3,166 nucleotides of DNA from a virus (Duplodnaviria; Heunggongvirae; Uroviricota; Caudoviricetes), in the IMG/VR virus record IMGVR_UViG_2513020041_000003. One strand, written 5' to 3'. The notes below the pieces were generated by a model. The model was not told where the DNA came from. It saw only the letters and a program-made list of their open reading frames with translations, and did no database searches. Shown piece after piece: positions 1 to 3,166 of this stretch (positions are counted from its first letter, which is position 1; each line of letters opens with the position of its first letter). The translations under genes and the position numbers were made by a program.

Positions 1-144
1 GCTGCTTATCTGTCTGATAGTGTTAACCAGTTGCGTGCCGAAGCAAAAAAATATGCCATACGCAAACCCGCTGATGAGCGGGTTTTGTGCTTTAAATGGG
101 GCAATGGTAATGTTGAATCTCATCCCGGGACTCATGTCTGTTAA
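1..144 (+). CDS. Rz-like i-spanin C-terminal coding fragment, 5' end outside the window (or a remnant copy)
   Basis: Nt 1-20 are identical to nt 3147-3166 and in the same codon phase as the Rz ORF at the 3' end. Translation from nt 1 reads AAYLSDSVNQLRAEAKKYAIRKPADERVLCFKWGNGNVESHPGTHVC*, which is coiled-coil-like at first. The frame reads through a terminator-like hairpin at 64-93, so the true coding end is uncertain and may be near nt 63. Confidence 0.4.
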   Translation, partial: AAYLSDSVNQLRAEAKKYAIRKPADERVLCFKWGNGNVESHPGTHVC

Positions 145-163
145 CTTATTATTTAGCTGGTGA
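2..163 (+). CDS. Rz1-like o-spanin lipoprotein frame (lipobox and mature region), 5' end outside the window or a remnant
   Basis: The +1 frame relative to Rz encodes LLICLIVLTSCVPKQKNMPYANP..., with lipobox L-T-S-C (Cys codon 32-34) and a Pro-containing mature region. This continues the signal-peptide start [18 protein letters not shown] found at 3112-3166. Downstream of ~nt 63 the frame crosses the hairpin and becomes hydrophobic, so the end is uncertain. Confidence 0.4.
   Translation: MLICLIVLTSCVPKQKNMPYANPLMSGFCALNGAMVMLNLIPGLMSVNLLFSW
64..93 (+). terminator. Terminator-like hairpin, plus-strand orientation
   Basis: Perfect 9-bp stem AAACCCGCT (64-72) / AGCGGGTTT (77-85) with loop GATG, followed by the T-rich stretch TGTGCTTT. 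It lies inside the formally open spanin frames. Confidence 0.45.
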
Positions 164-378
164 CTTGGTTATTTGCCTGATGTTTAAAATGTTTTCTTCC
201 AGTACAATGTCCCTAAACACAATGAGTCTGCTTATTATATTATTAGCAGAGCTATTACGGCCAAAGTACAGCATAAGCTTTTAAAGCCAATCAACCAGTC
301 ATCAAGACAGACGGGGTTATTCATAAAAACTCTCCATGTGTGATCCGATGGGGCCTGAAATTAAAGCTTTAATATAGC

Positions 379-591
379 TCATGAAAGGTAAACATTGGCA
401 GCTGAAGGGCCACGCAGACCATTTATCCGGCAAAATTCCACGCGTAATCCGGTGGTAATTTCTTCTGCATCGCGGAGATTGAGCGCTGAAACATGAAGCT
501 GGACATCGATACGACCATCGGATGGGGTGATAAGACCCTTGCCGCTTTTGCCGTCAAAGGTTTTGACAATTCCTGTCATTTTACGGGACAA
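379..591 (-). CDS. cspF: Cold-shock protein, CspF/CspH subfamily (70 aa)
   Basis: The 70-aa product has the cold-shock-domain hallmarks ([14 protein letters not shown]-terminus, [20 protein letters not shown]-terminus). The apparent start codon is TTG at 589-591, preceded by AAGGA with a 6-nt spacer and an in-frame TAA four codons upstream. The first ATG is 4 codons downstream (577-579). It is divergent from cspB, as I recall for Qin. Confidence 0.85.
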
Positions 592-891
592 AAAAATTCC
601 TTAATACTGATAACTTGGCGCACTATACACACGTTCCTGAAGAAAGCTATAGTTTTTTGATGGGGTTGAAGATGGCTGGATGTCTAAAATAAACATTGCT
701 TCATATGTTCAACTATGCGTTAATGATTGCGTCGGTTTGAAGAACAGACGATATACGAAGTAGTTTACTAAAGCAGTTCTCATTTCAGGTGTTATTCACT
801 TATTCCTTCTTTGAGTCTCTCCAATTAAGTACGAAGTCGTTTCTGTTATGCAAACCATTTATGCCGAAAGGCTCAAGTTAAGGAATGTAGA
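592..891. promoter_or_regulatory. Divergent cspF/cspB control region (promoters and long 5' UTRs, not mapped precisely)
   Basis: A 300-bp AT-rich intergenic region lies between the two divergently transcribed csp genes. Both genes share the ribosome-binding context TTAAGGAAT about 6 nt before the start codon. Csp-family mRNAs are known to have long 5' UTRs. No confident -35/-10 assignment could be made. Confidence 0.35.
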
Positions 892-1107
892 ATGTCAAAT
901 AAAATGACTGGTTTAGTAAAATGGTTTAACGCTGATAAAGGTTTCGGCTTTATTTCTCCTGTTGATGGTAGTAAAGATGTGTTTGTGCATTTTTCTGCGA
1001 TTCAGAATGATAATTATCGAACCTTATTTGAAGGTCAAAAGGTTACCTTCTCTATAGAGAGTGGTGCTAAAGGTCCTGCAGCAGCAAATGTCATCATTAC
1101 TGATTAA
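892..1107 (+). CDS. cspB: Cold-shock protein CspB-like (71 aa, CspA family)
   Basis: ATG start at 892 with AAGGAA (880-885) 6 nt upstream. The product [38 protein letters not shown]... carries the RNP1-like KGFGFI and RNP2-like VFVHF motifs of the CspA family. Confidence 0.92.
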
Positions 1108-1218
1108 AATTCATCGCTCGTCTGTATACGATAACGAAGAAGGCTGATGCCTGAGTAGAGATACGGACAGAGTAGTGAATATTGGATCTCTTTAATAAAA
1201 AGTAAGGAGGTCCAATAC

Positions 1219-1254
1219 ATGAAACAATGGCTAGCATATTTGGCAAAATCTTAA
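1219..1254 (+). CDS. Candidate 11-codon small ORF (MKQWLAYLAKS) behind a consensus Shine-Dalgarno
   Basis: TAAGGAGGT at 1203-1211, an 8-nt spacer, ATG at 1219 and TAA at 1252. No homology is recognised. It could be a leader peptide, a small protein, or a chance motif. Confidence 0.2.
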   Translation: MKQWLAYLAKS

Positions 1255-1388
1255 TCAGGAAAAGTATGCTAACCATTGTGGTGAAGTGCAGGTTTGCTGC
1301 ATGAATAGTTTTACAGCAGAAGCTAACTGCTGGCATGGCAAAACAAAGTGCGTAAGTGGATGACTCCCACAAAAAGCACCACAATCTC

Positions 1389-1416
1389 AAACCCGCTCAG
1401 GCGGGTTTTTTATTAT
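1389..1416 (+). terminator. Rho-independent terminator, probably bidirectional
   Basis: Stem AAACCCGC (1389-1396) / GCGGGTTT (1401-1408), loop TCAG, then a T-tract TTTTTTATTAT on the plus strand. On the minus strand the same stem is followed by TTTGAG, a weaker tract. It sits between the cspB-side unit and the convergent zinc-ribbon ORF. Confidence 0.7.
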
Positions 1417-1470
1417 CTGCTTTAAATATATTATTAAAATATAAAAAATACTTGTTACTAATAAAATCAA

Positions 1471-1641
1471 TCAGGCTACAGCTTTAAGATTTGTCTGGAA
1501 TACTTTGTTGCAATGAGGGCAGATCAAAAGGGCACCTTTTTGTACTCTTGAAAAACTGTGTTCTGACTCTTGGGTGCAGTTTGGGCAGGAACATTTAACG
1601 AGATAATTACGGCGTGATTTTGAGTTTTTACGTTCTGACAT
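1471..1641 (-). CDS. Small C4 zinc-ribbon protein (56 aa; alternative 73-aa form from ATG at 1690-1692)
   Basis: MSERKNSKSRRNYLVKCSCPNCTQESEHSFSRVQKGALLICPHCNKVFQTNLKAVA has CxxC-x18-CxxC and a basic N-terminus. The internal ATG (1639-1641) is preceded by AGGAAAAG with a ~7-nt spacer, whereas the upstream ATG lacks a good SD and adds a hydrophobic 17-aa extension. It may correspond to a small putative zinc-binding protein annotated in K-12 Qin (ynfU, if I recall correctly), but I cannot verify that. Confidence 0.55.
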   Translation of the reverse strand: MSERKNSKSRRNYLVKCSCPNCTQESEHSFSRVQKGALLICPHCNKVFQTNLKAVA

Positions 1642-1860
1642 AGGCTTTTCCTGTATAAATGGCCGTATACAGTACACTAAATATGAAAACATTTCTCGTA
1701 TTATTATTTTATATATGACTTTCTTTCAAAATAATTACCCACATTTTTAATGTGTATGTTTTTTTAGCGCCGTTGAGAACAACGTGTGCTGTCAAAACTA
1801 CCCCGTAGACTCCGATCTTTTCAAACATATTGCACCATCCGTGTACATCGGGGTGAGGAT

Positions 1861-2076
1861 ATGAAATCAATGGATAAGTTAACAACAGGTGTTGCCTATG
1901 GCACATCGGCGGGTAATGCTGGTTTCTGGGCATTGCAGTTACTCGATAAAGTAACTCCGTCACAGTGGGCTGCAATCGGTGTGCTGGGTAGCCTGGTTTT
2001 TGGCCTGCTGACGTATCTGACAAATCTTTATTTCAAGATTAAAGAAGACAGGCGTAAGGCTGCGAGAGGAGAGTAA
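1861..2076 (+). CDS. essQ: Class II pinholin, phage 21 S-type (71 aa) with dual-start motif
   Basis: N-terminus MKSMDK gives two in-frame starts (Met1 at 1861, Met4 at 1870), as in the S21 antiholin/holin pair. It has two predicted TMDs ([19 protein letters not shown], Gly/Ala-rich; [23 protein letters not shown]) and a charged C-terminal tail [24 protein letters not shown] purine tract lies immediately upstream. The gene name is by remembered synteny with K-12 Qin. Confidence 0.9.
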
Positions 2077-2080
2077 TCCA

Positions 2081-2388
2081 ATGACTCAAGACTATGAACT
2101 GGTTGTGAAAGGAGTCCGTAATTTTGAGAATAAAGTTACGGTAACTGTAGCCTTACAGGACAAAGAACGCTTTGACGGTGAAATTTTTGACCTGGATGTC
2201 GCCATGGACCGTGTTGAAGGAGCTGCGCTGGAGTTTTATGAGGCAGCAGCCAGAAGGAGCGTCCGGCAAGTCTTCCTGGAAGTAGCAGAAAAATTGTCAG
2301 AAAAAGTTGAGTCTTATCTGCAGCATCAGTACTCCTTTAAGATTGAAAATCCTGCCAATAAGCACGAGCGTCCTCATCATAAATATCT

Positions 2389-2392
<4 letters not shown>
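2081..2392 (+). CDS. ydfR: DUF1327-family protein (YdfR-like, 103 aa), function unknown, inside the lysis cassette
   Basis: ATG at 2081 lies 4 nt after the holin stop, with AGAGGAGAG 7 nt upstream. The product is acidic and soluble with no TMD. Its stop (TGA 2390-2392) overlaps the endolysin start (ATG 2389-2391) as ATGA. The position between essQ and rrrQ matches what I recall of Qin. Confidence 0.85.

Positions 2393-3166
<774 letters not shown>

Follow-up and report, generated by a model that had tools for sequence, protein, structure and literature searches.

The window (the whole 3,166-nt stretch of DNA analyzed here) carries a hairpin followed by ynfS, cspF, cspB, ynfU, essQ, ydfR, rrrQ and the spanin genes rzpQ/rzoQ, and keeps their native gene order. 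The hairpin, a stem-loop with a T-rich tail (64–93, plus strand), is succeeded by ynfS (235–324, minus strand), which annotation and its open reading frame assign to a 29-aa small protein, and by cspF (379–591, minus strand; open reading frame and annotation). The next gene, cspB (731–1123, plus strand), has a leader of the cspA thermoregulator type ahead of its coding sequence (892–1107) and was identified by annotation and by a match to Rfam RF01766 (158.8 bits). This match is full-length over the cspB leader and coding region, as expected for a cold-shock gene. The interval between cspB and ynfU (1471–1641, minus strand; annotation) contains a second hairpin similar to the first (1389–1408), recognized by folding and by a Term-seq 3′ end on the opposite strand. 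The lysis genes follow on the plus strand: the essQ/essD holin (1861–2076; annotation), ydfR (2081–2392; open reading frame and annotation) and the rrrQ lysozyme (2389–2922; open reading frame and annotation). The lysozyme gene overlaps the start of rzpQ at 2919, which places the i-spanin gene in lysis-cassette position.

The two spanin genes are split between the ends of the window. The i-spanin gene rzpQ (2919–3166, plus strand) is represented at the right end by codons 1–82 and 2 nt, which are identical to positions 8856–9103 of the E. coli K-12 MG1655 locus (L001) and match Pfam DUF2514 and PHROG 312. In its +1 frame lie the start and first 18 codons (3112–3166, plus strand) of rzoQ, the gene for the o-spanin lipoprotein (b4689; annotated at NC_000913.3 1639080–1639334). 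Both genes resume at window position 21. From there to position 63 (plus strand) the sequence equals that of K-12 and takes rzpQ up to codon 97 and rzoQ up to codon 33, including the Cys codon (32–34) of the rzoQ lipobox, LTSC.

The entire window is 100% identical to the Qin prophage of E. coli K-12 MG1655 (complement of NC_000913.3 1639237–1642382) in circularly permuted order. Window positions 64–3166 align with L001:6001–9103 and positions 1–63 with L001:9084–9146, both with 0 mismatches, so the window represents a single piece of the Qin cryptic prophage, 3,146 nt long. Both ends carry the same 20 nt (GCTGCTTATCTGTCTGATAG) as a terminal direct repeat, with a left copy at 1–20 (L001:9084–9103 in K-12) and a right copy at 3147–3166, where public contigs also end; this wrap-around overlap is the longest prefix of the window that equals a suffix. 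Since the ends overlap by exactly 20 nt, the window is one 3,146-nt unit plus 20 nt, and positions 64–3166 followed by 21–63 form a single unbroken K-12 stretch. The layout is that of a circle cut open 63 nt ahead of the point where it closes, and its last 20 nt repeat the first 20. A preliminary description of this DNA, made from the sequence alone, overlooked the terminal repeat and the Rz and Rz1 starts at the opposite end of the window (2919 and 3112) and took positions 1–63 for a 3′ fragment of a spanin gene. They are instead rzpQ codons 77–97, which continue the 5′ part of the gene (2919–3166) through the 20-nt overlap; the true 3′ third of rzpQ (codons 98–165) is missing from the window.

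The point at which the circle closes lies between positions 63 and 64. Here, the alignment joins L001:9146, inside rzpQ, to L001:6001, which is 107 nt downstream of the stop codon of the antiterminator gene quuQ/ydfT. The join thus fuses codon 97 of rzpQ (codon 33 of rzoQ) to the first base of the hairpin core, two sites that are 3,146 nt apart in K-12. A junction near nt 63 had been proposed in the preliminary description, together with a change in the character of the encoded sequence beyond it; the alignment fixes its exact position and explains the change, with rzpQ/rzoQ sequence at 1–63 and intergenic DNA from 3.1 kb away at position 64 onward. The 5,426 complete E. coli genomes searched gave the same picture: more than 1,400 of them, including K-12, carry window positions 64–400 at 100% identity immediately upstream of cspF, and bases 1–63 matched at a second, separate place.

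Past the join, the Rz frame stays open for 26 codons to a stop at 142–144, and the Rz1 frame for 32 codons to a stop at 161–163; the preliminary description had reported both frames open to these stops. The DNA that supplies these tails (64–163, plus strand) is non-coding sequence of the quuQ-cspF interval, as indicated by its identity to the genomic copies and by the lack of any Pfam or PHROG family match to either tail. Of the frames read from random points in the intergenic DNA at this locus, 22% are open for at least 27 codons, and two of the three frames are open as long as observed at 13% of such points. The open length is thus within chance and provides no evidence of coding. The sequence after position 63 in both spanin frames is intergenic DNA that happens to be free of stops, and it encodes nothing. 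The frames appear to cross a terminator because a 3,146-base piece of Qin is closed head-to-tail, which brings the middle of a spanin gene against a terminator that natively lies 3.1 kb upstream.

The native proteins continue very differently from the chimeras written in the window. The chimeric frames read ...KKYAIR|KPADERVL... (Rz) and ...NMPYA|NPLMSGFC... (Rz1). Native RzpQ (165 aa) reads ...KKYAIR|LDAAKHTADL..., and native RzoQ (b4689, 84 aa) reads ...NMPYA|LTQRSIPQILPLP... (LTQRSIPQ onward), both continuing as normal spanins. The functional phage HannyBb has an Rz of 165 aa (148/165 residues identical to RzpQ) and an Rz1 of 84 aa with the same continuation. Furthermore, RzpQ matches DUF2514 from residue 3 to 159 (positions 3–159 of the 161 in the profile) as well as PHROG 312, the “Rz-like spanin” family, and RzoQ matches PHROG 11621 and carries its lipobox cysteine at residue 23. 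The i-spanin product of the window contains only 97 of the 165 native residues and matches DUF2514 at residues 3–96 only. The o-spanin retains its start (3112) and lipobox and has 11 mature residues versus 62 natively. With both subunits cut off, the spanin pair is incomplete as written. If the join were true, both spanins would be non-functional, reduced to 97/165 residues of the i-spanin and 11/62 of the mature o-spanin.

We also searched for the chimeric products among approximately 15 billion public proteins. Neither the chimeric Rz (123 aa, with three possible starts) nor the chimeric Rz1 (65 or 70 aa) was present among them, and native RzpQ, the control for this search, was found on at least 1,000 contigs. 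P0003, a protein in the RzpQ cluster, is 123 aa long like the chimera; it proved to be an N-terminal truncation with a normal C-terminus and was rejected as a chimera. The 47-aa product at the left edge of the window had no record among public proteins. These results bear on the proposal, also made in the preliminary description, that the Rz/Rz1 pair of this prophage overlaps in an unusual way and that its coding sequence contains the terminator. Such an architecture would account for two frames that remain open to positions 144 and 163, and this is the one observation in its favor. The proposal is refuted by the identity of positions 64–400 to intergenic DNA in more than 1,400 genomes, by tails that match no family and are open within chance, by the different and conserved C-terminal parts of the native and phage spanins (LDAAKHTA and LTQRSIPQ in place of the chimeric tails, with no homolog matching the tails through 144 or 163) and by the absence of the products from the protein collections. 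We therefore give this architecture practically no credence.

The hairpin downstream of the join is a genuine element of the native prophage. It consists of two arms separated by a 4-nt loop (AAACCCGCT-GATG-AGCGGGTTT; 64–85) that form the 9-bp stem of the preliminary description, with 5 G-C pairs, and is followed by the T-rich tail that extends to about position 93. Window positions 55–100 fold at -18.7 kcal/mol (z = -3.2), and one in 200 shuffled sequences folds as well. The combination of a G+C-rich stem-loop and a T-run (TTTTGTGCTTT) is that of an intrinsic terminator. Indeed, Term-seq of wild-type MG1655 maps an RNA 3′ end, classed as “orphan”, to NC_000913.3 1642356 on the minus strand; the two entries located for it give averages of 103,591 and 55,368 reads (PMC7815308, supplementary file 1). 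This position corresponds to window nt 90, 5 nt past the stem and within the range (~86–93) in which the preliminary description had suggested looking for termination. The 3′ end was mapped in the native K-12 context, not in the chimeric one, and supports termination in vivo just past the native stem.

The surroundings of the hairpin in K-12 point to its role. In K-12 and seven homologs, including the functional phage, the stop codon of the Q gene is followed by TTGCAT-17-TAAAAT, six bases, AACGAT-GGG, approximately 30 nt, the CCCGC/GCGGG hairpin and a T-run, and past the T-run all similarity ends. A Q gene upstream, a sigma70 promoter and a pause element, the components of a Q/pR′/tR′ unit, are therefore found in all eight and lie outside the window. 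At the lambda pR′ promoter, AACGAT (+1 to +6) and the GGG after it form the sigma70-dependent pause element, where Q loads (PMC4005639). The best reading of the hairpin is that of a tR′-type terminator of the Qin late promoter, with a predicted read-through in the presence of QuuQ that would lead to the expression of the lysis genes. A transcript starting at the A of AACGAT (L001:5961) would be approximately 67 nt long. In K-12 the stem is lengthened by an outer helix (AAAGUAG/GUGCUUU). In the window, the join leaves the hairpin with neither its promoter nor its pause element, and its outer helix without a 5′ arm. The preliminary description was correct in considering the terminator unrelated to the spanin genes. 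On the opposite strand, CTACTTTTTC comes after the hairpin, which may, judging from these bases, also terminate the cspF-ynfS transcripts.

Several other features of the terminator region deserve mention. Compensatory changes were considered as support for the hairpin and rejected: among the eight homologs, CCCGC/GCGGG is invariant and the sixth pair is lost in two, which amounts to conservation without covariation. The K-12 T-run is short and interrupted (TTTTGTGCTTT, window 83–93) compared to the five to seven consecutive Ts of most diverged homologs, suggesting that the terminator could be leakier in the Qin lineage. The supplements of Adams et al. contained no 5′-end entries and no plus-strand 3′-end entries near the hairpin. 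In phage HannyBb (L013 3700–5540), the K-12-type promoter-pause-hairpin unit lies approximately 1.8 kb downstream of the annotated Q gene, and many tiny ORF calls of approximately 30 codons each fill the interval between the Q gene and the promoter. Another Term-seq 3′ end on the strand of the late operon (NC_000913.3 1642188, window nt 258) is antisense to ynfS and falls just past a small hairpin (CTGCT...AGCAG, 229–250); transcripts that have read through the first terminator may end here.

We also identified transcript ends around the cold-shock genes. The second hairpin (1389–1408; AAACCCGC-TCAG-GCGGGTTT, with the flank TGCTTTAAAT) closely resembles the hairpin at 64–85 and its flank, and the opposite-strand Term-seq 3′ end mapped there fits a terminator for ynfU. 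The two similar hairpins flank the cspF-cspB pair, an arrangement suggestive of a terminator duplication that accompanied the insertion of the cold-shock genes. Two very abundant Term-seq 3′ ends (604,404 and 1,233,565 average reads) map to window positions 1220 and 1222, approximately 115 nt downstream of cspB, and no hairpin or T-run is evident near them. Both fall on the ATG (1219–1221) of an unannotated 11-codon ORF, MKQWLAYLAKS (region 1203–1254), which is preceded by a near-perfect ribosome-binding site (TAAGGAGGT).

Taken together, the identification of the window as a permuted K-12 excerpt joined at 63|64, with non-coding tails and with clear identities for the terminator and the spanins, is secure. 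The origin of the join is a separate matter. The join has zero microhomology between its native sites (...CCATACGC|CTTGAC... and ...AAAGTAGA|AAACCC...), and the longest word common to their neighborhoods is 10 nt and lies away from the join. We therefore rejected a repeat-induced assembly cycle as a sufficient cause: with a common word of only 10 nt, the de Bruijn graph of K-12 alone cannot make the join. As no shared repeat is present at the join, it must either have existed in a read or molecule or have been introduced by concatenating sequences on purpose. We also rejected natural prophage mosaic boundaries as an explanation for the two breakpoints and the window end (L001:6000/6001, 9146/9147 and 9103/9104). 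Approximately 2,140 genomes are continuous across the two rzpQ sites (9103/9104 and 9146/9147), and the similarity among diverged prophages extends from Q through the hairpin, with a boundary after it (L001:6023) and not before it.

Searches for the join in public sequences were negative. The join was found in none of the 5,426 complete E. coli genomes, none of the PLSDB plasmids and none of the INPHARED phages. Queried as a 30-mer and as a 22-mer, it was also absent from species-representative genomes, IMG/VR viral contigs and JGI metagenome contigs. The positive controls were found, with the native 22-mers at the two sites each present in at least 120 viral contigs. Thus, no independent genome or assembly searched provided the join that a natural structural variant would be expected to leave. 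These results give no indication of the recombination or deletion within a natural prophage favored in the preliminary description, since the join is the closure point of a permuted K-12 excerpt and occurs in no public sequence searched. The junction and the unrelated terminator proposed in that description stand; the 3′ fragment and the unusual architecture do not, and the natural remnant is not supported.

A linear prophage remnant would require a second, truncated copy of Rz/Rz1 upstream of a Qin-like tR′-csp-lysis module. It is compatible with a junction exactly at 63|64, and a contig running between two copies of the 20-mer could in principle span two Rz copies. However, positions 1–63 continue base-perfectly from the window’s own 3′ end and are therefore the same allele, at 100% identity. 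Furthermore, no spanin fragment adjoins this hairpin in any of the 5,426 complete E. coli genomes, and a second copy of the rzpQ region is found in only approximately 2% of the genomes that carry the region. These observations make a linear remnant very unlikely.

The ends of the window also carry information about its assembly. In the public gene index, 106 blocks contain the 82-aa RzpQ fragment that is cut off at the right edge, and ten independent contigs from Logan, NCBI and ENA (L003–L012) end at the last base of the window or within 2 nt of it. The ten contigs, produced by several assemblers from different samples, are ordinary linear contigs without the join. Their ends at the terminal 20-mer indicate that the 20-mer is a common branch node in E. 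coli assembly graphs, and the last base of the window is probably the last one shared before two copies or alleles of the cassette diverge. These features point to an assembly-graph origin for the window, as a loop with an overlap of k-1 = 20, and leave the join itself unaccounted for.

We also identified two small records of Qin DNA presented as independent molecules. NZ_CP069920.1 (L225) is a 9.5-kb linear “plasmid” in a Klebsiella oxytoca FDA-ARGOS assembly that shares several RefSeq proteins with the K-12 locus, including RzpQ, lysozyme, YdfR and EssD. CP088536.1 (L226) is a 19.7-kb “circular” E. coli record that extends from flxA to tfaQ and has an IS5 downstream of the Q gene. In both, the genes keep their native order and rzpQ is intact. 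The records resemble products of contamination or misassembly, though excised or amplified Qin is possible.

Against this background, the join is probably an artifact of assembly or of sequence representation and not a rearrangement in a bacterial genome. The closure of the 3,146-bp Qin segment would reflect a looped or circularized contig, or a chimeric join. Through this closure the interior of both spanin genes abuts the hairpin, which in the native prophage is read as the terminator of a short RNA from the Qin late promoter. We favor this reading because the join is seen nowhere else and has no microhomology, and because the window consists of one unit plus a k-1 overlap and ends on a graph node. 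The occurrence of Qin fragments as spurious small “plasmid” records was also counted in its favor. Three considerations weigh against it. The K-12 sequence alone cannot yield the join in a de Bruijn graph, a looped contig with a k-1 overlap is also expected from a real circle or tandem array, and absence from public collections is compatible with a rearrangement that is private to one strain.

These same considerations lead to a real join as the alternative, in which the 3,146-bp tR′-cspF-cspB-essQ-ydfR-rrrQ-rzpQ′ segment would be tandemly duplicated, amplified or circular in a K-12-like strain or sample. The join would then have formed by homology-independent end joining, with a breakpoint at the foot of a strong hairpin, and the assembler would have collapsed the structure to a looped contig. 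Such a contig is recognized by a length of exactly one unit plus the overlap, here 20 nt, the identity to K-12 is perfect on both sides, and the lack of a shared repeat that explains the join implies its presence in some molecule or read. Spontaneous duplications in E. coli usually use short repeats, IS or REP elements. The zero microhomology of the join is atypical of such events, and contigs from K-12 with a simple tandem duplication should stop where the duplication does, not 43–63 nt away as the window ends do. Furthermore, a real join has to be reconciled with its absence from the 5,426 complete E. coli genomes and all other collections searched and with chimeric proteins that have never been recorded. 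We consider a real join unlikely, though less so than a linear remnant. If real, it would leave every internal junction with shortened spanins, an i-spanin with 97 native residues and an o-spanin with 11 mature ones. Such a structural variant, private and within a defective prophage, would inactivate spanin genes that were already cryptic, and would be of minor interest.

The preferred reading, an artifactual closure, has a practical consequence for quality control. Sequences with identical first and last 20 nt need to be unrolled before frames at their ends or closure are read; otherwise, the closure point mimics a gene fusion. The window holds no new spanin architecture, and nothing in it shows a natural prophage remnant. 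The underlying elements, a Qin lysis cassette and a lambda-type late terminator, are textbook and already known in every case. The analysis also has a small by-product: the hairpin of Qin can now be assigned to a lambda-like pR′ unit as its terminator, and the 3′ end there is mapped. We did not find this assignment in the literature searched.

Like looped or circularized contigs from de Bruijn assemblers, whose terminal overlap serves as a sign of circularity, the window has a prefix equal to its suffix, with a length (20 nt) that is the typical k-1 for k = 21, a total length of one unit plus the overlap, and ends on a node where public contigs commonly break. Unlike in such contigs, the closure is not explained by a repeat in the reference genome, and the graph alone is insufficient to explain it. 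The window is also base-for-base the same, over 3,146 nt and with the same gene order, as the K-12 Qin lysis cassette (essQ-ydfR-rrrQ-rzpQ/rzoQ) with its cspF-cspB insert. It differs from the K-12 cassette in being permuted and self-closed and in lacking rzpQ codons 98–165, rzoQ codons 34–84, quuQ and the late promoter.

The native rzpQ/rzoQ pair resembles the embedded two-component spanin of lambda in having the o-spanin wholly inside the +1 frame of the i-spanin gene, downstream of the endolysin gene. As in lambda, the native i-spanin has an N-terminal membrane segment, and the native o-spanin is a lipoprotein with the lipobox LTSC. Unlike lambda Rz, RzpQ belongs to the DUF2514 Rz-like family and is no sequence homolog of lambda Rz by Pfam. 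Similarly, the K-12 hairpin has the position of the terminator in the Q-pR′-tR′ unit of lambda, which produces the short 6S RNA: it follows the Q gene, a sigma70 promoter and AACGAT-GGG at the predicted +1, and the late lysis genes are downstream of it. The lambda 6S RNA is 194 nt, whereas the RNA predicted for Qin is approximately 67 nt and the K-12 T-run is short (UUUUGUGC). Furthermore, the cold-shock gene insert of K-12 separates the terminator from the holin, unlike in the lambda late unit, and, unlike lambda tR′, the terminator in the window is severed from its promoter.
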